Notes under the pieces: generated by a model | Databases searched by the model: none | The model's input: the letters and a program-made list of their open reading frames with translations, nothing else | Told to the model about the DNA's origin: nothing | Position numbers and translations under genes: made by a program | Part shown: positions 4,657 to 56,086 of the stretch, piece by piece | Numbering within the stretch: the stretch's first letter is position 1 | Layout of the letters: the number at the start of each line of letters is the position of its first letter | From: Calditrichota bacterium | Lineage (GTDB): Bacteria > Zhuqueibacterota > Zhuqueibacteria > Zhuqueibacterales > Geothermadaptataceae | Assembly (NCBI GenBank): GCA_008501765.1 | Contig: QQUE01000002.1 | Span: forward strand, 244,336-308,335 | Length of the DNA stretch: 64,000 nucleotides | Direction: 5' to 3'

Positions 4657-4943
4657 ATTGATTAGGTCTTTAGCTCCGCGGCCTTTTTCTTAAACGGCCT
4701 TCGAAAAATGGCGTTAAGAACTTTTTGAGAATTTCCGTTAAGAATCATTTTTTGTTTGAGCGCAGCGAGTTTAAAATGATTTAGGAAATTCTCAAAAAGT
4801 TTAGCCGATTTTTCGTCAGCCTTGATTTTTTTGTTTCTTTTTTGATCAAGCAAAGCCAGCGGCCGGCGAAGCAAAAAGAAAATGCACAACACATTAAAAA
4901 TTTTGCAATTGAATTAAGTACAGCGGAGCTAAGGTCACAATCA
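4657..4943 (-). mobile_element. MITE-like non-autonomous element, copy A (~287 bp; imperfect TIRs; perfect 8-bp TSD AAATCAAT)
   Basis: Reverse-complement of 4657-4943 aligns almost base-for-base with 47268-47534. Ends carry imperfect inverted termini (TGATTGTGACCYTAGCTCCGC … GCGGAGCTAAAGRCCTAATCAAT). An 8-bp direct repeat AAATCAAT flanks both ends. Contains a ~20-bp internal indel relative to copy B. Confidence 0.7.
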
Positions 4944-27666: not shown

Positions 27667-28491
27667 TTATTTATCCCCGTACATCGTTTCGAAAATGGCG
27701 TCGCTGATTCCCATGGAGCTGAAGCCGCCGTCGTGGTAGAGATTCTGCATCGTAACCATTCTGGTGAGGTCGGATAACAGGGTCAAAACGTACTCGGCAC
27801 AGTCATCGGCCGTGGCGTTGCCGAGTGGTGAGAGTTTTTCTGCAAAATCATACATGGCGTCAAAGCCGGCAATGCCGCTGCCTGCGGTGGTCACCGTCGG
27901 GCTTTGTGAAACGGTGTTGATGCGCATTCCGAGCTTTCCAAGTCGCGATCCAAGGCTACGAGTGATACTTTCGAGCAATGCTTTGGCATCCCCCATGTCC
28001 CCATATTTCGTAAAAATCCGCTGGGCGCCAATGTAAGAAAGCGCAACGATGGAAGCGCCTTTGTTGAGCGCATCGGCTTTCAACGCCTGCGTCACAATAC
28101 GGTGCAACGAAAGAGCGGAAACGTCCAACGTTTTGTGAAACCAATCGTAGTTCAAGTCCATGTAATCTTTCTTTTTACGCACGTTCGGCGACATGCCGAT
28201 GGAATGAACGATAAAATCCAGTTTGCCAAATTTTTCTTTTAGTTGGGCAAAAGCTACATCAAGCTGCTCATTATTTGAAGCATCACAGGCAATAATCGGC
28301 GCGTCACCACATTTTTTCGACAATTCATCAATTTGTCCCATTCGCAGGGCTACTTTTATATTGGAAATCCCGAACTCCGCCCCTTCGCGATAAGCTGTTT
28401 CCGCAATTTTCCAGGCGATACTTTTATCATCCAATGGGCCGAAAATTATGCCTTTTTTTCCTTTTAATAAATTATAACCAGCTGTGCTCAT
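27667..28491 (-). CDS. fabI: Enoyl-[acyl-carrier-protein] reductase (NADH), FabI-like SDR
   Basis: N-terminal LLKGKKGIIFGPLDDKSIAWKIAETA… matches the FabI dinucleotide-binding region (LLKGKKGLI.G.AN..SIAWGIA). Y-x6-K catalytic dyad region SYIGAQRIFTKYGDMGDAKA. Start placed at MSTAGYN… (internal Met). Confidence 0.8.
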   Translation of the reverse strand: MSTAGYNLLKGKKGIIFGPLDDKSIAWKIAETAYREGAEFGISNIKVALRMGQIDELSKKCGDAPIIACDASNNEQLDVAFAQLKEKFGKLDFIVHSIGMSPNVRKKKDYMDLNYDWFHKTLDVSALSLHRIVTQALKADALNKGASIVALSYIGAQRIFTKYGDMGDAKALLESITRSLGSRLGKLGMRINTVSQSPTVTTAGSGIAGFDAMYDFAEKLSPLGNATADDCAEYVLTLLSDLTRMVTMQNLYHDGGFSSMGISDAIFETMYGDK

Positions 28492-28915
28492 CGTTCCTCC
28501 AAAAATATTATTTTCACATAATTTAAATTCCAAAAATGACTGTAAAGATAAGGCTCAGTGAAGTTTCCTGCAAGATGAATTTTATTCAATATTAGGTGTA
28601 TTTAATTATGGTATTAATATTTTTTGCTATACTCTTTAAAATAAAATTTGCCACAAAGATCACAAAGTACACGAAGAAAAAGTGAATAAAATGGTTTCGC
28701 TTTTCAATGTTGAATATGAAAATATTCCCAAACTTAATCAATTTAAACTTCCCGATCTTCATTTAATTCATGGTCTATAAAAATTTCAATTAAATTAAAT
28801 GCAACTTTTTATATTGCATTCCATCTTAAAATTGATTGCCTTGCATTTTCATATTTATTCTGTTAAATTTTGCTAAACGAATACTCTTTTTTTGAATAAA
28901 TGGTAATAAAAGCAC

Positions 28916-29872
28916 ATGCAACAAAATGGTGAGAAAAACTTTGCCGGAATCGGCACCTGTCCTGCATTTATAAATGTCGTTGAAAAAGCAAGCAAATTTG
29001 CCACAGTTCCTCGCCCGATTCTGATTCGGGGAGAACGTGGAACCGGCAAAGAAGTTTTGGCGCAATACATCCACAACCAAAGCCAGCGCTGCGATGAAAA
29101 ATTTGTTGCGATCAATTGTGCCGCGCTGCACGACGAGCTATTTATCGCTGAAATTTTTGGTCACGAGAAAGGGGCATTTACCGGTGCAACCAGCAACCGC
29201 ATCGGGAAACTGGAACTTGCCCACAAAGGCACGCTCTTTTTAGACGAAGTCGCCAACATGTCCCGCGATGCCCAGGAAAAGTTGCTGCGTGTCGTGGAAT
29301 ACCAGCAATTTGAAAGGCTCGGCGGTAGCGAAGAAATCCACGTCGATGTGCGCATTGTGGCAGCGACCAACGCCCATTTAGCGACTATGATCGCCAAAGG
29401 AGAGTTTCTCGCAGATCTTTATGACCGCATTGCGTTTGCCGAGCTTACTTTACCTCCATTGCGCAAGCGCCGCGAAGATATTCCCGCACTTATTTCCCAT
29501 TTTTTGAAAAATCTGCACCACGAAATGCCGGACATCGAGAAAAAAGTATTCACACCAGCCGCCGTTCGCGCTTTACAAGCCTACCATTGGCCAGGCAACA
29601 TGCGTGAGCTAAAAAATGTCATCGAGCGCCATTATATCTGGGATGCTGACGGAGTAATCCATGCTTCCGAGTTGCCTTTGGAAATAACCACGGTTGAACC
29701 GATTGGCGGCACATTTCACGAACAGGTTCGGGCCTTTGAAAAATCTCTCCTTCTAAATACGCTGAAGGACGTCATGGGAAACCAGCGCGAGGCCGCAAAA
29801 CGCTTGGGAATGACTTACGACCAATTCCGCCATTACTACAAAAAATTTGCTCTCGGGGAATTATTGGCGTAA
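28916..29872 (+). CDS. pspF: Sigma-54-dependent transcriptional activator lacking a regulatory domain (PspF-type architecture: AAA+ sigma-54 interaction domain + Fis-type HTH)
   Basis: GERGTGKEVLAQYIH (Walker A). Sigma-54-type ATPase domain (…FGHEKGAFTGA… GTLFLDEVANMSRDAQEKLLRVV…). C-terminal HTH (EAAKRLGMTYDQFRHYYKKF). No receiver, GAF or PAS domain. Lies directly upstream of pspA. Confidence 0.8.
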   Translation: MQQNGEKNFAGIGTCPAFINVVEKASKFATVPRPILIRGERGTGKEVLAQYIHNQSQRCDEKFVAINCAALHDELFIAEIFGHEKGAFTGATSNRIGKLELAHKGTLFLDEVANMSRDAQEKLLRVVEYQQFERLGGSEEIHVDVRIVAATNAHLATMIAKGEFLADLYDRIAFAELTLPPLRKRREDIPALISHFLKNLHHEMPDIEKKVFTPAAVRALQAYHWPGNMRELKNVIERHYIWDADGVIHASELPLEITTVEPIGGTFHEQVRAFEKSLLLNTLKDVMGNQREAAKRLGMTYDQFRHYYKKFALGELLA

Positions 29873-29941
29873 AAAACCACTCCTTGGCGTAATCCCCCAC
29901 TTTGGATCGAAACCACTCTTTAAAAAACAACAAGTTACATT

Positions 29942-29957
29942 TGGCATCATCGTTGCT
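29942..29957 (+). promoter_or_regulatory. Sigma-54 (-24/-12) promoter upstream of pspA
   Basis: TGGCAT-catcg-TTGCT with exact GG-N10-GC spacing. The core matches consensus TGGCAC-N5-TTGCW except the last -24 base (T for C). Lies 65 bp upstream of the pspA ATG. Two direct AAACCACTC repeats sit further upstream (29875, 29911). Confidence 0.7.
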
Positions 29958-30021
29958 TAAATCGCGGCATGTTTATATCAGACAAAAATTATTTTGAACA
30001 ATATTTCTATTGGAGGCTACA

Positions 30022-30723
30022 ATGAAAGTTTTTAAACGTGTAACTGAAATGGTAAAAGCGAATATCAATCATTTGCTTGATCAGGCGGAAGATCCCGAAG
30101 TTATGGTCAAGCAAATCATTCGCGATATGGAAGAAAGCATCATCGAAATGCGCCGTGAGACGGTACGAGCCGTATCCCGTGAAAAACAAGTTGAAAAGCA
30201 GTTGCAGATCGCGCAGAATTTATCAAACGATTATGCAGCCAAAGCCGGCGAGGCCGTGGAAAAAGGAAACGAGGAGTTGGCGCGGAAAATTCTGGCGAAA
30301 AAAGTAGTAACCGATCAACAAAGCACCGCTTTAGCCAGTGAACTCAAGGAAGCAAAAATCGTTTCGGAGCAGTTAAAAAACGACTTGCTCAGCCTTGAAG
30401 ATAAAGTTCAAAGCGCCCGGCGTAAAAAGGAAGAACTCATCCGTAGAAAACGCTCCGCCGATGCCAAGTTGCGAATCCAGGAATCGGCCAATAAAGCGAT
30501 AGATGGTATCAAAAACGCAGCGGGTAAAATTTCCAGCATCACCGATTCAGAATCATCGCTAAAAAGTTATGAAGATGCGATTATGGGACTTGAGGCCGAT
30601 GCCGAAGCAGCACATGAAATTGCCAAGCTCGGACAGGAAAATGATATTGATCTCGATAAATTGGAGAAAGAAAAAGCCGTTGAAGATGAGCTGGCGAAAC
30701 TGAAAAAACAACAAAAGAAATAA
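30022..30723 (+). CDS. pspA: Phage shock protein A (PspA/IM30/Vipp1 family)
   Basis: MKVFKRVTEMVKANINHLLDQAEDPEVMVKQIIRDMEESIIEMRRETVRAVSREKQ… matches the PspA N-terminal signature (…NALLDKAEDPEKM..Q.I.EME…). Long coiled coil throughout. RBS GGAGG upstream. Confidence 0.88.
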   Translation: MKVFKRVTEMVKANINHLLDQAEDPEVMVKQIIRDMEESIIEMRRETVRAVSREKQVEKQLQIAQNLSNDYAAKAGEAVEKGNEELARKILAKKVVTDQQSTALASELKEAKIVSEQLKNDLLSLEDKVQSARRKKEELIRRKRSADAKLRIQESANKAIDGIKNAAGKISSITDSESSLKSYEDAIMGLEADAEAAHEIAKLGQENDIDLDKLEKEKAVEDELAKLKKQQKK

Positions 30724-30735
30724 GAGGGTAAAGAG

Positions 30736-31299
30736 GTGATAACGCTATACCTTTGCTGTTTGGCTTTTGGGGGGATTCTTCTCATCGTTTCCCTGTTCAC
30801 TGGTTCCGATGGTGAATTGGCTGGCGATGTTGAAATCGAGGCTGATGTTGGTACGGAAGCGGAATCCGAGGGTGTTGTAAATGCATTCAGATATTTTAGT
30901 TTTCGCAATATCGTATATTTTCTCACTTTTTTCGGACTCACCGGCGTTACTGTCGCGCGCATTGAACTACCTTCCGTTGTGACCTTTGTGGCGGCGCTTG
31001 TGATGGGATTTTTCGCTGCCAGTCTGGGGCATGTCGTTATGGAATACCTCAAAAACTCCCAGGTTGGGCAAGCCGAAAATTTAGCCGATTTTGAAGGGCA
31101 ATTAGCAAAAGTTTTGCTCAATATTTCAGAGTTAAAACCTGGAAAAATAAGTATCACACTCGATGAAAACATCCATCAGGTTTTGGCCCGTGTTGCAGAT
31201 GAATCGGCAATCCAGGAATTTCGACATGGTGAGACTGTGACTGTGGTTCGCGTGCAGGATGGTTATGCCTACGTGGCTGAAAAGAATTTTATCGATTAA
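30736..31299 (+). CDS. NfeD-like membrane protein (short form, YuaF-like) with C-terminal OB-fold
   Basis: GTG start with RBS. Two or three TM helices, then a C-terminal beta-rich domain (…KPGKISITLDENIHQVLARVADESAIQEFRHGETVTVVRVQDGYAYVAEK). Directly precedes a flotillin gene, the conserved NfeD-SPFH pairing. Confidence 0.6.
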   Translation: MITLYLCCLAFGGILLIVSLFTGSDGELAGDVEIEADVGTEAESEGVVNAFRYFSFRNIVYFLTFFGLTGVTVARIELPSVVTFVAALVMGFFAASLGHVVMEYLKNSQVGQAENLADFEGQLAKVLLNISELKPGKISITLDENIHQVLARVADESAIQEFRHGETVTVVRVQDGYAYVAEKNFID

Positions 31300-31315
31300 A
31301 TAAAGGAGGGGTAAC

Positions 31316-32686
31316 ATGATATCCCAATTGGTGCTGGTCCTTGCGATTATTGCAGCGGTGATTGTATTTGTTATAATTGTAGCCATAAGCAAACTGTTGT
31401 TGATTTGCCATCCAAATGAGGTGATTATTCTTTCCGGGCGAGAGAGAAAATTATCCGACGGTTCCCGAGTTGGTTACCGGATTATCCGTGGGGGAAAAGC
31501 ATTACGCATTCCACTTATTGAAAAAGCCGCCCGCATGAGTTTACAAACGATTCCTCTTGAATTACGTGTCACAAACGCCTACTCGAAAGGCGGCATTCCA
31601 CTGAGTGTAGAGGCAATTGCCAATGTGAAAATAAATTCCAGTGAGCCGATATTTGGCAACGCCGTCGAGCGATTTCTCGATAAACCCAAGGATGAAATTT
31701 TACACATCGCCAAAGATACATTGGAAGGCAATCTGCGCGGTGTTTTAGCAATGCTAACACCGGAAGAGGTGAATGAGGACAGGCTAAAATTCGCCGGAAA
31801 TCTCATCGAAGAAGCCGACGCTGATTTGCAGCAACTTGGCCTGCAATTGGATACGCTTAAAATTCAAAATATCTCCGATGATGCAGGATATCTCGATTCC
31901 ATCGGAAGAAAGAAGACCGCCGATGTGATCTCGAAAGCACGCACAGCCGAAGCGGAACGAACCGCCGAAGCAGAACAATCGGAAGCCGAAGCGAAAATGC
32001 GAGCGGAAGTCGCACGGGCAAAAGCACGCGAAACCATCGAAACTTCCAAAATTGAAGCGGATACTATCATCAAAACCAGAGATGCTCAGGCGAAGCAAAA
32101 GGTTGAGGAAGAGGAAAACAAGCTGCGCGTGAAAAAAGCTGAGCTGGAAAAAGTTGCTGTCATTCACGAGCAGGAAGCCAGTGTTGCCGGTGAAAAAGCC
32201 AAGGCGCAGTATGAGCAAGAAATGGAGAAAGAGCGTATTATTTTGCAGCAAAAACGGCTCGAGGCTGACGTCATCGAACCTGCAAAAGCAAACATGAAAG
32301 CCGATCAATTACTCGCCAAAGGGAAAGCAGCGCACATTCTTGAAGACGGCGAGGCAAAAATCACCGTATTAACCGATATGATATCCACATATCAAAAGGC
32401 CAACGGCGAAGGCGAGAAAGTATTCATTTTACAAATGCTGCCGGAAATCATCAATCAGCTATCACAAACAGTCGGCCAATTGAATATTGATAAAATTAGT
32501 GTGATCGACAGCAGCAATGGCGGCCCCAATAGCGGCATCAGCAAATTAGTCAACCAAATGCCCGCAGCAGTTATTTCATTGGTTGATCAGATTGAAACTG
32601 CCACTGGTATCAATATTCTGAAGGGATTGCAGCCTGGAAATGGCGATGCACTTGCTGAAAAAAGCACTGAAAGTAAAGAATACTGA
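31316..32686 (+). CDS. Flotillin-like SPFH/band-7 protein (FloT/YuaG-like)
   Basis: N-terminal TM anchor. SPFH domain (…RIPLIEKAARMSLQTIPLELRVTNAYSKGGIPLSVEAIANVKI…). Long EA-rich coiled-coil (AEAERTAEAEQSEAEAKMRAEVARAKARE) typical of flotillins. Confidence 0.85.
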   Translation: MISQLVLVLAIIAAVIVFVIIVAISKLLLICHPNEVIILSGRERKLSDGSRVGYRIIRGGKALRIPLIEKAARMSLQTIPLELRVTNAYSKGGIPLSVEAIANVKINSSEPIFGNAVERFLDKPKDEILHIAKDTLEGNLRGVLAMLTPEEVNEDRLKFAGNLIEEADADLQQLGLQLDTLKIQNISDDAGYLDSIGRKKTADVISKARTAEAERTAEAEQSEAEAKMRAEVARAKARETIETSKIEADTIIKTRDAQAKQKVEEEENKLRVKKAELEKVAVIHEQEASVAGEKAKAQYEQEMEKERIILQQKRLEADVIEPAKANMKADQLLAKGKAAHILEDGEAKITVLTDMISTYQKANGEGEKVFILQMLPEIINQLSQTVGQLNIDKISVIDSSNGGPNSGISKLVNQMPAAVISLVDQIETATGINILKGLQPGNGDALAEKSTESKEY

Positions 32687-32712
32687 TTTTCCCGTAACAT
32701 ATCCTCCCTTCG

Positions 32713-32746
32713 AAGGCCCTCCAAATTTTGGGGGGCCTTTTTTTTG
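32713..32746 (+). terminator. Rho-independent terminator after flotillin gene
   Basis: AAGGCCCTCCAAA-tttt-GGGGGGCCTT plus a T-run. Confidence 0.6.
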
Positions 32747-32838: not shown

Positions 32839-33606
32839 ATGAGCTTACAGAATAAAGTATTTCTAATAACCGGAGCCACAAGTGGTATTGGCCGCGCAAC
32901 GGCCATTACCGCCGCACAAAAAGGTGGGCGTATTGCCCTGATTGGACGAGATGAATCCGCGCTTGCAAACCTGGCGAACGAATTGAATCATACCAACGAG
33001 ATTGCCCTGCCCCTTGTTTGCGATGTCACTGATAAAACACAACTCAAAACCACACTCGCTAAAACTATTCAGCATTTTAGCAGGCTGGACGTGCTTGTCA
33101 ACTCCGCCGGTATCATTGCCACAGGATCAATTGAGCAAACATCGACGGAAAACTGGAACACAATGATGGATGTGAACGTCACCGCCGTTTTCCATCTTAT
33201 GCAACTTGCCGTTCCGCACCTCGAAAAAACACAGGGTAATATTATTAATGTATCCAGTGTTGTCGGGACGCGATCTTTTCCCGGAATCCTTTCCTATTCG
33301 GTCAGCAAGTCAGCGCTGGACCAATTGACGCGCTGCGCAGCCATGGAATTGGCCCCGAAAAAAATACGCGTGAATGCCGTAAATCCGGGCGTCGTTGTCA
33401 CAAACCTGCACCGTCGCAGCGGTATGGACGAAAAAAGTTATGCTGCCTTTTTGGAACACAGCAAAACCACCCACCCAATCGGGCGCGTTGGGGAACCGAA
33501 TGACATAGCACATGCAATATTATATCTCGCTGCTGATGAAGCAGGCTGGGTGACAGGAGTAACACTCAATATCGATGGTGGACGCCATTTAACCTGCGCA
33601 CGATAG
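32839..33606 (+). CDS. SDR-family oxidoreductase (FabG-like 3-oxoacyl-ACP reductase type)
   Basis: ITGATSGIGRATA (TGxxxGxG). NSAG motif. YSVSK catalytic Y-x3-K. 255 aa. Confidence 0.8.
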   Translation: MSLQNKVFLITGATSGIGRATAITAAQKGGRIALIGRDESALANLANELNHTNEIALPLVCDVTDKTQLKTTLAKTIQHFSRLDVLVNSAGIIATGSIEQTSTENWNTMMDVNVTAVFHLMQLAVPHLEKTQGNIINVSSVVGTRSFPGILSYSVSKSALDQLTRCAAMELAPKKIRVNAVNPGVVVTNLHRRSGMDEKSYAAFLEHSKTTHPIGRVGEPNDIAHAILYLAADEAGWVTGVTLNIDGGRHLTCAR

Positions 33607-33674: not shown

Positions 33675-34922
33675 ATGGCATCCACGCGATTCTATTTTTT
33701 GATTTTACTTTTTTTAGTTGCTTTGAATTATCGCAGCGCCGCTTCAACAAATACCGACTCCGATAAAGTTTATTCCGAAAATATCAGAGAGGTACGCGTT
33801 CGATTCGGTATGACTCTGGGTAATATTCTGCGTAAAAATGATATCCCAAGGCTGCAAATCCAGCCGCTTTTAAATGCTTTTTCTTCTGTCTATAATCCGC
33901 GAAAAATCCGTGCAGGTGAGAAATTACAACTCAAATTTGACGCTGACGGCCAATTCTCTGCATTGTACTATCGACCAACACCTGATAGAAAAGTGAATAT
34001 CTTCGCTGATTCTTCCGGAAATTTTATTGCACACCTCGATACTTTGCCAATTATTGTCAAAGAGAAATTGCTGGTCGGGACAATCGAAACGACGCTTTAC
34101 GAAGCTATTCTGCAGGCTGGAGAATCACCCGAATTGATAATGGCTTTTTCGGACATATTTCAGTGGGATATCGATTTTTTTATCGATCCCCGGGTCGGCG
34201 ACTCCTTCGGAATTTTGTATCAAAAAAAATCTGTAATTGATCCGGAGTCGGGCTTGCCGACGTTTCTGCAATATGGAGATATCCTCGCAGCGGCTTACGC
34301 ACAAAAAGACACAACTCTCATTGCATTTGGCAATCCGGTAGAAAATGGGCTATTGCTTTATTATGATGAAAATGGAAAAAGTTTTCAAAAAACATTTCTC
34401 AAATCACCCCTAAATTACCGCCGAATATCCAGTTACTTTTCCCGCAGCCGCTTTCACACGATTTTCAAAAGAAGACGCGCTCACACCGGCGTTGATTTTG
34501 CCGCGCGCACAGGAACCCCGGTTGTCTCATCAGCTGACGGAACAGTGATTTTTAAAGGCTGGAATGGAGGCTATGGCCGGTGTGTTAAAATTTCTCATAA
34601 AAACGGATCCTACGTCACCCTCTACGGTCATTTGTCGCGCTACGCCAACCTGCGCGTCGGGCAAAAAATCAGCCAAAATCATCTCGTTGGATATGTCGGT
34701 CAATCCGGGAACGCCACCGGGCCTCACCTGCATTATACCATGTATTACAACAAAAAAGCCATCGATCCACTCAAAATTCGACCTCTTGCGGGGAAGCCGC
34801 TGCAAGCATCTCAACTTCCTGAATTTAATTTGCTGAAAGAGACGCTTTTGCAAAAGCTCGGCCTGGGCACCCACAAAAACTTTGAAGCCATACTGATGGC
34901 GAAAGAAGTCAGCGCACGCTAA
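33675..34922 (+). CDS. M23-family peptidoglycan endopeptidase with OapA/Csd3-like N-terminal region
   Basis: HTGVDFAARTGTPVVSSADGTV…GHLSRY…GPHLHY (HxxxD…HxH zinc motifs of M23/LytM). Signal peptide. Confidence 0.8.
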   Translation: MASTRFYFLILLFLVALNYRSAASTNTDSDKVYSENIREVRVRFGMTLGNILRKNDIPRLQIQPLLNAFSSVYNPRKIRAGEKLQLKFDADGQFSALYYRPTPDRKVNIFADSSGNFIAHLDTLPIIVKEKLLVGTIETTLYEAILQAGESPELIMAFSDIFQWDIDFFIDPRVGDSFGILYQKKSVIDPESGLPTFLQYGDILAAAYAQKDTTLIAFGNPVENGLLLYYDENGKSFQKTFLKSPLNYRRISSYFSRSRFHTIFKRRRAHTGVDFAARTGTPVVSSADGTVIFKGWNGGYGRCVKISHKNGSYVTLYGHLSRYANLRVGQKISQNHLVGYVGQSGNATGPHLHYTMYYNKKAIDPLKIRPLAGKPLQASQLPEFNLLKETLLQKLGLGTHKNFEAILMAKEVSAR

Positions 34923-52432: not shown

Positions 52433-53641
52433 TTGAATTCAAGTTCGCAGTCAAATGCTGAAATCAGCTCAATAAAGTCGAAATCCTTGCTCGTCTATTT
52501 GGGCATTTGGCTTGTTGTCAGCTTCATATTTTTTTTCGTGTTTCTGCCCAGCGATTTTGCCGCTGAGATGCAACGCCCACTACGCCATGTGCTGTTGCAG
52601 TTTTCCTTTTCGATAATTCTTGCCGGATTTTTGGCGCCGTTCATCATTCTGCTCAATGATTTTTTCCCATTCGAGATACACAAATTGTGGGTCATTATCG
52701 GGATGCATCTCATCGGGTTGGCCGTTTTCTCCCTGATTTATATCAACGCATTTCAGTACCTCATTGAGCATTACATTGGCTTTCCGGGACGCGGTTTTGG
52801 CGGCCGGATGCAACTCGGTCCACGGCCTTTTTTCGAGGGCAATTTTGCACAGAGTTTAATGCAAACCCGTTTATTTGTCAATGCGCTGCAACATATCTGG
52901 CAATCGGTCTTTTTTTACATTTTAATTCTCGGATTAAATTACAGTTTCAATTTTTACCGCAAATACCGCGAGCGCGAAATTCATGCGTCGCACCTGGAAT
53001 TGCAACTGATCAATTCGCAATTACGCGCCCTGAAAACTCAGTTGCAACCGCATTTTCTGTTTAATACCTTGCACACCCTCTCTTCATTAATTTACCAAGA
53101 TGTGCCAGCAGCCGACAAAATGATTCGGCAATTGAGCGATTTGCTGCGCCTGACATTAGACAGCACTGGCGATCAGGAAATACCAATTAAACGCGAGGTT
53201 GAACACCTGCAGCTCTATCTCGAAATCATGCAAATTCGTTTTCAGGACCGACTGCAGGTAAAATATGATATCGCTGCTGAGGCTGAAAACTCATTTATTC
53301 CGACACTTCTCCTGCAACCTCTTGTGGAAAATTGTATAAAACATGGATTGGAAGCATCGACACGTCAGGGGTTGGTTGAGATTTCTGTGCAAAAACAGGA
53401 AGAGAAAATTGTAATTTCGGTAATTGACAATGGCCCCGGTTTCACAGGGGATGCCAACGCTCTTTTTCAGAAAGGGGTAGGATTAGCGAATACGGCCGAC
53501 CGCCTGCAAAAACTCTACAGCAGCAACCATAAATTGGAGATCACTTCCAACGGCAATAATGGAACGAAAGTTTATATCGAATATCCATTTCACACTACAC
53601 CGTGGTTGAATAATTTAAGCTTCTATTCTTCAGGAGCTTAG
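52433..53641 (+). CDS. LytS/YehU-family sensor histidine kinase (5TM-like membrane region + His_kinase + HATPase_c)
   Basis: …QLQPHFLFNTLHTLSSLIYQD… (LytS-type H-box). C-terminal HATPase_c (…VIDNGPGF…GVGLANTADRL…). No LytTR regulator is adjacent. Confidence 0.8.
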   Translation: MNSSSQSNAEISSIKSKSLLVYLGIWLVVSFIFFFVFLPSDFAAEMQRPLRHVLLQFSFSIILAGFLAPFIILLNDFFPFEIHKLWVIIGMHLIGLAVFSLIYINAFQYLIEHYIGFPGRGFGGRMQLGPRPFFEGNFAQSLMQTRLFVNALQHIWQSVFFYILILGLNYSFNFYRKYREREIHASHLELQLINSQLRALKTQLQPHFLFNTLHTLSSLIYQDVPAADKMIRQLSDLLRLTLDSTGDQEIPIKREVEHLQLYLEIMQIRFQDRLQVKYDIAAEAENSFIPTLLLQPLVENCIKHGLEASTRQGLVEISVQKQEEKIVISVIDNGPGFTGDANALFQKGVGLANTADRLQKLYSSNHKLEITSNGNNGTKVYIEYPFHTTPWLNNLSFYSSGA

Positions 53642-53899: not shown

Positions 53900-54157
53900 T
53901 TAGCCAATAAGGAAGTGAAATACGTTCGCTATCACAGCTAAAACGCTGCAAGAAATTCCCAAATATTTTACCCCCAAAATTCTTTTCTCCAAAAATGAAA
54001 GCAGACTTGCCGCAATATACTGAAATATTCCCATCTCCAAATCATGTGCTGCAATTGAATAGCTAATTAAACATACCAAAAGAATTATTCCGAATAACGC
54101 CCATATAAAAAGTTTTACTTTCCCCCATATTGTAATGCCGCCTGCCACTGCAATCAC
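53900..54157 (-). CDS. Small hypothetical membrane protein
   Basis: 85 aa with two TM helices in an otherwise non-coding 1-kb interval. Weak support. Confidence 0.25.
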   Translation of the reverse strand: MIAVAGGITIWGKVKLFIWALFGIILLVCLISYSIAAHDLEMGIFQYIAASLLSFLEKRILGVKYLGISCSVLAVIANVFHFLIG

Positions 54158-54646
54158 CTCTCATCTCCGTGTTTTTTTACGATAGCCATTCATTTAATTC
54201 TCATAAATGTGGATCGTAATGCAAGCGGCATACCACATCATAAGTTATTGTTTTTATTAAAAAATAAATTATTTACTTTGGCTTAATACACCAGGACTTG
54301 GTGGAAAACACCATTTAATATGATGGCTATTTGAGGCAAAACTCAACAATGGACGGCAAGTCTAGCACAAATTATTTCATCTGATGAACCGGCCTTTTCA
54401 CCCCGAGGCGTTGATAGATCTCATCCGTTGTTACAGATAATCCTGCTAAATTGCGATTGTCATAAATTATGGGAATTTCCAAGATTAAGCATATTACTTG
54501 CAGATATCAATTTAAGTTAATATAATAAACAGGCTTATTCAGCCCAAAAGAGTGCGGATTATAATATGCAATTAATACAATTTCAAGCTTAACTTGAATT
54601 GTAATAGACGCATAAATTAGTATGAGCTGTCAACAAAGAGACCCAT

Positions 54647-56086
54647 TTGTCCACAGGCAAAAAAAATACCGATGTGGTAGTAAATCAAAAGTTTAGAATT
54701 CGTGTTTTGATCATTGGCGCCGGCAGCACATCCGCACCGATGATCAAATTATTAATTAACGACCAGAGTATTTCTATTTCTGCTGTCGTTGATAAAGATG
54801 CCGGAGCTCCGGGAATTGCACTCGCCGAACAACTGGGAATCTCCACCTCGAAAAACTACCACGATTTTATCGAGGATAACAACCTCGATATGATTATTAA
54901 TATGGTGGAAAACCCGGCCCTGCACCAAAAATTAGCCAAAGAAAAACCGCTGCACACAATTCTTATCGGGCAATCCAGTGCAATGCTCATCTGGACAATG
55001 CTCGGTGAACATAAAAAGAAAAAAATTTTAAAAGACACTTTTCGCTCTACCTGGACAACGACACACGGGCAAATTGCCGGCGGGTTTATCATCGGACGGG
55101 GTGATAAAATGCAAGAAGTCGGCAGGCTTATTTCCCAGGTTTCGCCGACATCAACGGCTGTGTTTATCCGGGGTGAAAGCGGCACCGGCAAGGAACTTGT
55201 CGCTCGTATGGTGCATAAAAACAGTATTTTGCATGAATCCCATCTCATTACAGTAAACTGCACCGCGCTGAGCCCAACGCTCATTGAAAGTGAACTATTT
55301 GGCCATAAAAAAGGGGCGTTTACCGGAGCCCATTCAGACCACATCGGGTTATTCGAAAGGTCGCACAACGGCACCTTGTTTCTCGACGAAATAGGCGACA
55401 TGCCCTCAGCACTGCAGGCTAAACTACTGCGTTTTTTACAGTCCGGCGAAATCCGTCCAATTGGCGGCATTGAAGTCAAAAAAGTAAATGTCAGGATTAT
55501 CGCAGCAACCAATAGAGACCTGGAAGCAGCAATGGAAAAGGATGAATTTCGCATGGATCTGTTTTACAGACTAAATGCTTTCACAATTCATCTGCCCCCT
55601 TTGCGCGAAAGAAAAGAGGATATTCCACAACTGGCATATACTTTCTTAAAAAACGTCAAAGCAAAATTGAACAAATCCATTAGTAAAATATCCCTTGAAG
55701 CCATGTCAATTTTTGTGGAACACAATTGGCCGGGCAACATTCGTGAACTGCGAAATGTTGTTGAAAGAGCGGCTGTGCTGACATCTTCATATGAAATTAA
55801 AGCACGGCATCTGCCACTTTATCTACAACCGCAACATAGCTCAGAGAGCAGCAGGGCAATACCCAAAAACTTAAATGAAGGATTCATGGCTTTGAAAGCC
55901 AAAGCGATAAACACATTCGAATACGAGGTTGTCTCGAAATATCTGTTAGAAAACGGTGGCAATGTTTCCCGCGCAGCCTCAGCTGCACGCGTACCGCGCC
56001 GCACATTTCAACGGCTGATGTCAAAGCATAAAATTAACACCGACACTTTTAAAGCCGGGGAGTCTTCACAACAGAAAAGGGAATAA
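54647..56086 (+). CDS. Sigma-54-dependent transcriptional activator with atypical N-terminal Rossmann-like domain
   Basis: N-terminal ~130 aa (RVLIIGAGSTSAPMIKLL…AVVDKDAGAPGIALAEQLGI…) looks like an NAD(P)-binding/dehydrogenase-like N-terminal fold rather than REC, GAF or PAS. Then GESGTGKELVARMVH, GAFTGA and ESELFGH motifs of the sigma-54 AAA+ domain. C-terminal HTH. Confidence 0.85.
   Translation: MSTGKKNTDVVVNQKFRIRVLIIGAGSTSAPMIKLLINDQSISISAVVDKDAGAPGIALAEQLGISTSKNYHDFIEDNNLDMIINMVENPALHQKLAKEKPLHTILIGQSSAMLIWTMLGEHKKKKILKDTFRSTWTTTHGQIAGGFIIGRGDKMQEVGRLISQVSPTSTAVFIRGESGTGKELVARMVHKNSILHESHLITVNCTALSPTLIESELFGHKKGAFTGAHSDHIGLFERSHNGTLFLDEIGDMPSALQAKLLRFLQSGEIRPIGGIEVKKVNVRIIAATNRDLEAAMEKDEFRMDLFYRLNAFTIHLPPLRERKEDIPQLAYTFLKNVKAKLNKSISKISLEAMSIFVEHNWPGNIRELRNVVERAAVLTSSYEIKARHLPLYLQPQHSSESSRAIPKNLNEGFMALKAKAINTFEYEVVSKYLLENGGNVSRAASAARVPRRTFQRLMSKHKINTDTFKAGESSQQKRE

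Follow-up and report, generated by a model that had tools for sequence, protein, structure and literature searches.

The locus considered here raises the question of whether the envelope-stress protein PspA and a flotillin with its NfeD-type partner are placed under the control of a single σ54 promoter, an arrangement which the original prediction took to be the merger of two normally separate systems. It occupies positions 28916-32746 of a 64-kb stretch of a Calditrichota genome (contig QQUE01000002.1; hereafter the window), and comprises four open reading frames (ORFs), all on the forward strand: a pspF-like gene encoding a σ54 enhancer-binding protein (28916-29872, 318 aa), pspA (30022-30723, 233 aa), ORF3, which codes for an NfeD2-type membrane protein (30736-31299, 187 aa, GTG start), and a flotillin gene (31316-32686, 456 aa). 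The evidence presented below makes it likely, with a confidence that we regard as good, that this is a real and conserved four-gene envelope-stress module in which the PspF-like activator and its σ54 promoter drive pspA, the NfeD2-type gene and the flotillin gene as one transcript.

The σ54 promoter and the predicted operon

The public gene calls agree with our own ORF calls, and both place the four genes where the original prediction had placed them; the assignment of their products to the PspF-like, PspA, NfeD and flotillin families was likewise upheld. The pspF and pspA genes are 149 nt apart, and only 12 and 16 nt, respectively, separate pspA from ORF3 and ORF3 from the flotillin gene. An intrinsic terminator (32712-32745, +) begins 26 nt past the flotillin stop codon; its hairpin spans 32712-32740, with a 3-nt loop and seven G-C pairs in the 13-bp stem, and leads into a T run. 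A strong terminator is found only here, with none before 32712. The short gaps and the single terminal terminator support the predicted reading of a single operon. Scans of the entire window against Rfam and for tRNAs returned no match, and hence point to no known leader RNA element.

The -24/-12 motif which the original prediction identified, TGGCATCATCGTTGCT (29942-29957, +), carries its GG at 29943-44 and its GC at 29955-56, 10 nt apart, and lies 64 nt upstream of the pspA ATG, with the transcription start expected near 29968. It is the sole match to TGGCAY-N5-TTGCW on both strands of the window, against an expectation of 0.31. For comparison with other genomes, one genome per species was scanned, which yielded 70 loci with a relative of ORF3 (L numbers below), and tblastn with the four window proteins was used to map the genes around it; a relaxed σ54 pattern, [TC]GG[CTA]A[CT]-N6-TGC, was then scored against a background rate derived from 1.5 Mb of sequence. 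This pattern occurs exactly once, and on the correct strand, in the pspF-pspA interval of all 15 loci that carry pspF, the window included, where 0.71 matches would be expected; as a control, a σ54 motif is found within 500 nt upstream of the ORF3 homolog in only four of 42 loci that lack pspA.

These figures bear directly on the possibility that the motif is a chance match and that the genes are expressed from σ70 promoters or by read-through from pspF. Such a view could draw on the fact that a single degenerate motif of 11 positions is expected 0.31 times per window, and that no terminator intervenes between pspF and pspA. However, the only match in the window falls in the one 149-nt gap, and on the one strand, where it is predicted; all 15 loci have the equivalent motif, which stays with the operon even where other genes intervene; and a dedicated σ54 activator gene always accompanies it. 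A chance match is thus effectively refuted by the comparative data, and the support for the σ54 promoter is now far stronger than could have been known from this one locus when the prediction was made.

Tandem palindromes upstream of the promoter

When 17 promoters were aligned on their -24 elements, two tandem imperfect palindromes with the consensus (T)TGGCG-N6-CGCCA(A), 20-21 bp apart, became apparent. In the window these are the distal TTGGCGTAAAAAACCAC (29864-29880), which overlaps the pspF stop codon at 29870-29872, and the proximal TTGGCGTAATCCCCCAC (29884-29900), situated 20 bp from the distal one and 57-58 bp upstream of the -24 element; their centres lie approximately 96 and 76 bp before the expected transcription start. 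In most loci (the window, L002, L003, L004, L007, L009, L010, L011, L019 and L031), the distance from the start of the proximal palindrome to the -24 element is 55-58 bp. The palindrome pattern is matched 25 times in the pspF-pspA intervals, as compared with 1.4 matches expected, and a composite search, in which a palindrome is followed after 30-50 nt by the σ54 motif, returned 15 matches in 1.55 Mb, 13 of which are psp promoters; the other two are a chance-like match and a second site in the window that is discussed below. On account of their position and conservation, we propose the tandem palindromes as candidate upstream activating sequences, i.e., the putative enhancer to which the activator would bind.

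Half of the distal palindrome is made up of the last codons of pspF, TTG GCG TAA, and the end of the PspF-like protein is thus encoded over its own predicted binding site. Members of the PspF-like clade end in a tail, YDQFRHYYKKYxLGELLA, that is strongly conserved among them but that E. coli PspF lacks (window 29800-29872 and alignment). The notion that the distal palindrome is a mere by-product of the codons for this ...GELLA end was considered and rejected as the sole cause, since both palindromes persist far from pspF: they are retained where the promoter is separated from pspF or where pspF lies outside the retrieved DNA (L003, L004, L007, L008, L010 and L031). Between the palindromes and the promoter lies an A-rich block, AAACAACAAGTTA (29925-29937, +), which differs by one mismatch from the IHF-like consensus, WATCAANNNNTTR, and might, as a weak inference, represent an IHF-like bending site.

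Conservation of gene order

A flotillin gene lies directly 3' of the ORF3 homolog in nearly all of the 70 loci for which downstream DNA was available. Upstream, pspA is found on the same strand in about 19 of the 70, and a PspF-like gene still further upstream, also on the same strand, in 14 (L001-L005, L008, L009, L011, L016, L017, L019, L023, L028 and L031). The latter carry the labels Calditrichota, KSB1, 'Omnitrophota' OLB16, Acidobacteriota (L017, L028 and L031) and unclassified. Most of the 70 loci possess the NfeD-flotillin pair without pspA. These counts indicate that the NfeD-flotillin pair is an old autonomous unit, in front of which pspF and pspA have been added in a subset of lineages.

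The tightness of the junction between pspA and the NfeD gene varies: the two are separated by no more than 15 nt or overlap in the window and seven relatives, and the gap is looser elsewhere (38-380 nt). In some relatives, among them a Calditrichaceae group, they are 270-1500 bp apart with unrelated genes inserted, and the coupling of pspA to the NfeD-flotillin pair is therefore not obligatory. Such arrangements lend themselves to an alternative account in which only pspA is under the control of σ54 and the PspF-like protein, the NfeD-flotillin pair being expressed constitutively from an internal promoter in the 3' part of pspA, with the adjacency reflecting loose linkage. The pair would indeed need a promoter of its own in the majority of loci, where pspA is missing, and a σ70-like sequence matching at nine of 12 positions is present within pspA at 30620-30648. 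However, σ70-like matches here are no better than those in shuffled sequence (12 found versus 8.2 +/- 3.0 expected), the gaps in the window are 12 and 16 nt without a terminator before 32712, and the tight or overlapping junctions are shared by seven relatives from different phyla. Hence, we consider an internal promoter improbable and favor a single transcript from the σ54 promoter through to the flotillin gene.

Several further observations, in addition to the separation of pspA from the NfeD gene in some relatives, weigh against that reading. First, in the region between pspF and the promoter there is no terminator, and read-through from the pspF promoter could add expression that is independent of σ54. 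Second, since the conserved codons at the 3' end of pspF extend into the distal palindrome of the window, coding constraint might account for part of the conservation of that palindrome. Third, among the proteins encoded by the 64-kb window none has an RpoN box, and the presence of rpoN in this genome is implied only by the two GAFTGA-containing activators that the window encodes. Fourth, both the co-transcription of the genes and their dependence on σ54 are read from sequence. Finally, the activator departs from E. coli PspF in its model score and in its predicted PspA-docking surface, as detailed in the section on the activator.

Certain relatives show additional or alternative gene arrangements. 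The inserts between pspA and the NfeD gene include an IS200-like Y1 transposase (a weak match), a DUF1648 membrane protein and a 464-aa protein without an assigned family (L019 5426-6007; L021 1185-1721; L003 3606-5000). In Calditrichaceae-type relatives a PDDEXK_3 (GxxExxY-type) protein is encoded first after the σ54 promoter, followed in several of them by a DUF6141 protein with two transmembrane (TM) segments and then by pspA (L003 2191-2661; L004 1428-2532; L007 453-1422; L008 1451-2068; L010 4743-5075; L019 3562-4552; L021 6-413); these appear to be extra genes within the predicted PspF-controlled unit. The KSB1 relative L002 (4776-5073) displays a σ54 promoter, TGGTACGTCAGTTGCT, at 4776, then a hydrophobic ORF of about 65 aa and then pspA; this ORF matches no Pfam family and bears no similarity to ORF85 (see below). 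In two metagenome-assembled genomes (MAGs) of Ectothiorhodospiraceae, pspA is found divergently beside the NfeD-flotillin pair (L025 4996-5637, -; L056 5325-5807, -), in versions closer to E. coli PspA (~36% identity); these are independent evidence of a functional linkage.

Two tandem flotillin genes follow the NfeD gene in loci labelled Myxococcota, 'Deltaproteobacteria' and Planctomycetota (L050, L052, L053, L057-L059, L061-L065 and L067-L069). L057 and L067 (Sandaracinaceae) share an identical σ54-like motif, CGGAATGGCCTATGCT, upstream of the NfeD gene, and L062 has a fragment of a σ54 activator and a palindrome-like site nearby.

The NfeD2-type protein and its flotillin partner

The identity of ORF3 had to be established by profile searches and fold comparison because Pfam and NCBIfam provided no NfeD match: no model of either collection, PF01957 included, matches the window ORF3 (for Pfam, even at an E-value of 10), and when four ORF3 homologs were scanned, PF01957 was matched only by the distant homolog P0022. 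For the public protein, the precomputed Pfam annotation lists PF25842 (NfeD_TM) as a weak match. A database search recovered no more than 22 relatives, every one from an uncultured member of Calditrichota, KSB1 or a similar lineage, and an identical sequence is on record from a Calditrichaeota MAG. In an alignment of 19 homologs, a hydrophobic helix at the N terminus is followed by a variable linker rich in Asp and Glu, by two further hydrophobic helices and by a conserved β-rich C-terminal domain of about 70 residues. The best PDB match of the profile derived from this alignment is B. subtilis YuaF (E 0.023), with coverage of the whole soluble domain. Consistent with this, the AlphaFold model contains helices at residues 2-22, 56-75 and 80-109 and five strands between 123 and 182, with a pLDDT of 84-94 in the C-terminal domain, which adopts an OB fold that is superimposable on solved NfeD domains. 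Comparison with E. coli YqiJ is not significant by pairwise BLASTP; at the profile level it yields a weak but full-length match (E 2.3e-4).

NfeD2 proteins have been defined by three hydrophobic stretches and an all-β domain, and are encoded upstream of SPFH2 flotillins (Hinderhofer et al. 2009, PMC2636767), with YuaF being the NfeD partner of the flotillin FloT in B. subtilis (PMC2636767). On the basis of the profile match to YuaF, the modelled fold, the NfeD_TM mark and the profile match to YqiJ, ORF3 is an NfeD2-type (YuaF/YqiJ-like) protein, with TM1, an acidic variable linker, TM2 and TM3, and a C-terminal OB fold; the call of an OB-fold NfeD protein, made originally from the sequence of ORF3 itself, is thereby borne out. 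The loop between TM1 and TM2 (window 30800-30890, ORF3 residues ~22-52) is a highly variable low-complexity segment rich in Asp, Glu and His, of the DxDxD type; its length ranges from about 20 to about 90 residues among the homologs (alignment columns 30-125), and model confidence is low there. It is possibly cation-binding.

The SPFH2-type flotillin has an N-terminal hydrophobic anchor, an SPFH domain (Pfam Band_7, E 6.9e-21) and an Ala/Glu-rich coiled-coil flotillin region. It matches human flotillin-1 (E 1.3e-40 over residues 29-435) and flotillin-2 (E 2.3e-30), and its similarity to E. coli YqiK (E 2e-8) is weaker than that to flotillin-1. The NCBIfam model for FloT (NF058507) scores 164 bits against a cut-off of 700, and hence the protein is not a FloT ortholog.

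PspA

The pspA gene starts with an ATG preceded by GGAGG 7 nt upstream, and the public call likewise gives 233 aa, although a mechanical ORF begins at an in-frame TTG further upstream, at 30010. Its product, an ESCRT-III-like protein of the PspA/IM30 family, matches PF04012 (PspA_IM30) over residues 3-232 (E 7.5e-35; 121 bits versus a cut-off of 33.9), and its PDB matches are Synechocystis PspA/Vipp1 (E 1.7e-24) and E. coli PspA (E 5e-15). The proteobacterial PspA equivalog model TIGR02977 scores 118.3 bits, below its cut-off of 242.95. By direct comparison, the N-terminal amphipathic helix region, FKRVTEMVKANINHLLDQAEDPE, closely resembles its E. coli counterpart.

The activator and its predicted PspA-docking surface

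The activator combines an AAA+ domain (Sigma54_activat, E 2e-62, with AAA_lid_14) with a C-terminal Fis-type helix-turn-helix (HTH; HTH_8, E 3.8e-6, residues 271-304). As the AAA+ domain begins at residue 13, and the ORF at the first possible start codon after the upstream stop, no space is left for a sensory domain at the N terminus. The best NCBIfam model is TIGR02974 (pspF) at 345.6 bits, which is under the cut-off of 443.55; NF008622 scores 284.4 bits against a cut-off of 529. The activator, PspA and the flotillin are thus best treated as members of their families rather than demonstrated orthologs, given that in each case the best NCBIfam model scores below its equivalog cut-off.

The activator and 12 relatives were aligned with E. 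coli K-12 PspF, whose sequence was taken from the genome record. The Walker A lysine (K42), the GAFTGA motif (which reads GAYTGA in three of the 12 relatives), the Walker B residues D107/E108, R168 and R227 are conserved, indicating that the catalytic and σ54-contact motifs are intact; the equivalent of R162 is not conserved. In E. coli, PspA inhibits PspF by docking on a hydrophobic patch of the W56 loop formed by Y51, L52 and W56, and the variants Y51C, L52C and W56C escape this inhibition (PMC3791423). The corresponding positions are N/Q/C in the window activator and variable among the 12 relatives. Consequently, the PspF architecture of the original prediction stands in that the protein is devoid of a regulatory domain, but not with respect to the E. 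coli-type PspA-docking surface, which is absent; and, without this YLW patch, the classical negative feedback of PspA on PspF cannot be assumed.

This raises the possibility that the activator is not restrained by PspA at all, being instead either constitutively active and controlled only by its level, or regulated by another partner such as the NfeD-flotillin complex or its own conserved C-terminal tail. Beyond the substitution of the patch and the escape phenotype of the corresponding E. coli variants, the sub-threshold score against the PspF equivalog model is compatible with such a divergence, as is the fact that tblastn with E. coli PspB, PspC and PspD against the window and the 70 loci found none of these proteins, which is a weak negative because they are short and divergent. 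Conversely, the adjacency of pspF and pspA is kept across phyla, as would be expected of interacting proteins, the N-terminal region of PspA has remained very similar to that of E. coli, and a second PspA-binding site on PspF has been proposed (PMC6003685), making a different interface conceivable. Taken together, an activator free of restraint by PspA is a serious possibility, albeit one that we consider somewhat less likely than not. PspA feedback, in short, may act here via another surface or be absent.

A possible second promoter and the neighboring genes

The second site recovered by the composite search lies at 54220-54313 on the reverse strand and comprises palindromes TGGTGTTTTCCACCAA (54313-54298) and TGGTGTATTAAGCCAA (54293-54278), an A-rich block and the -24/-12 motif TGGTATGCCGCTTGCA (54235-54220). 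Its spacing is that of the pspA promoter, with 20 bp between the palindromes and 58 bp to the -24 element, and the two promoters align in register, A-rich block included; hence, it is a possible second promoter of the same regulon. Downstream of it lies ORF85 (53900-54157, -), an orphan gene with a GTG start and an upstream GGAG, whose 85-aa product is predicted to be a multi-pass membrane protein; this product matches no Pfam family, and a search of 5.8 billion proteins returned only the protein itself. A second σ54 activator, with a Rossmann-like N-terminal domain and an HTH sequence that differs from that of the PspF-like protein, is encoded on the divergent strand (54647-56086, +), about 330 bp from the second promoter. 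Thus, either this promoter would be an orphan target of the PspF-like protein, or the second activator would use look-alike sites. E. coli PspF also drives pspG, and ORF85, if it is a target, would present a parallel to that gene. A gene for a LytS-type membrane sensor kinase (His_kinase PF06580 and HATPase_c; 52433-53641, +) is convergent with ORF85.

The genes flanking the operon are lipid and cell-wall genes: a divergent gene for a FabI-like enoyl-ACP reductase (27667-28533, -) on the upstream side, and genes for a FabG-like short-chain dehydrogenase (32839-33606, +) and an M23 peptidase with a LysM-like domain (33675-34922, +) on the downstream side.

Relationship to known systems

The locus shares several features with the pspF-pspABCDE systems of E. 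coli and Yersinia, namely a σ54 activator lacking a sensor domain (AAA+ and Fis-type HTH) adjoining pspA, a -24/-12 promoter behind two upstream activator sites, and pspA as the first gene of the predicted induced operon. It differs from them in that pspF is co-directional with pspA rather than divergent, in that the NfeD-flotillin pair follows pspA in place of pspB, pspC, pspD and pspE, and in the absence of the YLW patch and the sub-equivalog scores of the activator and PspA. The second half of the unit resembles B. subtilis yuaF-floT and E. coli yqiJ-yqiK (PMC2636767), where an OB-fold membrane protein with three hydrophobic segments likewise precedes a flotillin. However, those operons lack pspA and are not σ54 dependent (yuaFGI being controlled by σW), their sequence similarity to the proteins of the window is very low, and the flotillin described here is closer to eukaryotic flotillin-1.

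A further parallel is offered by B. subtilis pspA-ydjGHI (samGHI): there, as is predicted for the present operon, a regulator of the envelope-stress response governs the co-transcription of pspA with genes for an SPFH protein and for membrane partners. The regulator there is the extracytoplasmic function sigma factor σW, as opposed to σ54 and the PspF-like activator; YdjI is a soluble SPFH protein, unlike the membrane-anchored flotillin; and the partners are YdjG (a zinc ribbon protein) and YdjH (with a TPM domain, per Ravi et al.) instead of an NfeD OB-fold protein. The supposition that PspA and the flotillin system occupy separate operons in both E. coli and Bacillus consequently holds only for E. 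coli, in which yqiJK lies at a different locus from pspABCDE; in B. subtilis the pspA operon includes a gene for an SPFH protein.

Moreover, the linkage of PspA with flotillin and NfeD has already been published, and the claim of a merger of two normally separate systems is not supported. Ravi et al. (2024, PMC11237479) report PspA genes adjacent to band-7/flotillin and YqiJ/YuaF or NfeD genes across bacteria, and Popp et al. (2022, PMC9239133) report band 7_Flot genes beside 11 of 19 acidobacterial pspA genes, along with NfeD and HTH regulators. In both cases, the same three effector families are linked as in the window. Since three of the cassette loci identified here are from Acidobacteriota, the association noted by Popp et al. 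is very probably the same cassette. The operons described by Ravi et al. are mostly centred on a CesT/Tir-PspA dyad, often with an AAA+/β-propeller protein (PMC11237479), and their Table S3 lists no PspF-linked flotillin example. Neither paper, in the text consulted, mentions the σ54 promoter, the pair of tandem palindromes or the lack of a docking patch for PspA. What is new is the promoter and enhancer architecture conserved across phyla, the absence of the YLW patch, the proof, from its structure, that ORF3 belongs to the NfeD family, and the second promoter. As the gene combination itself has been described, the locus does not represent a new class of system but adds a well-supported example to a known one, with some new regulatory detail.

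Proposed mechanism and implications

We propose that the PspF-like activator would bind the two tandem TGGCG-N6-CGCCA-type palindromes and, by means of ATP hydrolysis and its GAFTGA loop, open the σ54 closed complex at 29942-29957, giving rise to a single transcript that would run from pspA through the NfeD2 gene to the flotillin gene and end at the terminator at 32712-32745. The NfeD-flotillin pair, as an old two-gene unit, would form an SPFH scaffold on the inner membrane, and in this lineage pspA and σ54/PspF control would have been placed ahead of it, such that the ESCRT-III-like repair protein PspA and the scaffold could be produced together under membrane stress. An SPFH protein that recruits PspA is described in a preprint (10.64898/2026.02.06.704340), and in B. 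subtilis YdjI is required for the formation of PspA foci at the membrane (PMC8581546). By analogy with YdjI/SamI, the flotillin-NfeD complex probably recruits PspA to, or positions it at, the membrane, and by the same kind of analogy it may take the role of the enterobacterial PspB and PspC.

A broader hypothesis, which we advance as a speculative one and would hold only tentatively, is that in Calditrichota, KSB1, Acidobacteriota and allied lineages the NfeD2-flotillin pair has replaced PspB/PspC in deciding whether PspA resides on the membrane or on the activator, with PspA controlling the activator through an interface other than the YLW patch, and with the activator recognizing the tandem TGGCG-N6-CGCCA enhancer and running a small regulon that would include ORF85 in this genome.

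The Psp response is mechanistically understood almost only in enterobacteria (PspF/PspA/PspBC) and Firmicutes. The present locus and its 14 relatives suggest that the PspF/σ54 logic reaches well outside Proteobacteria, where it appears to be wired to flotillin-NfeD instead of PspBC. The locus provides a sequence-level prediction of the enhancer, in the form of two palindromes at a fixed spacing, and constitutes a natural test of the need for the YLW patch in PspA feedback. Additionally, with only four genes, the system is compact enough that one might use it to reconstitute the proposed joint action of an ESCRT-III-like protein with an SPFH cage.

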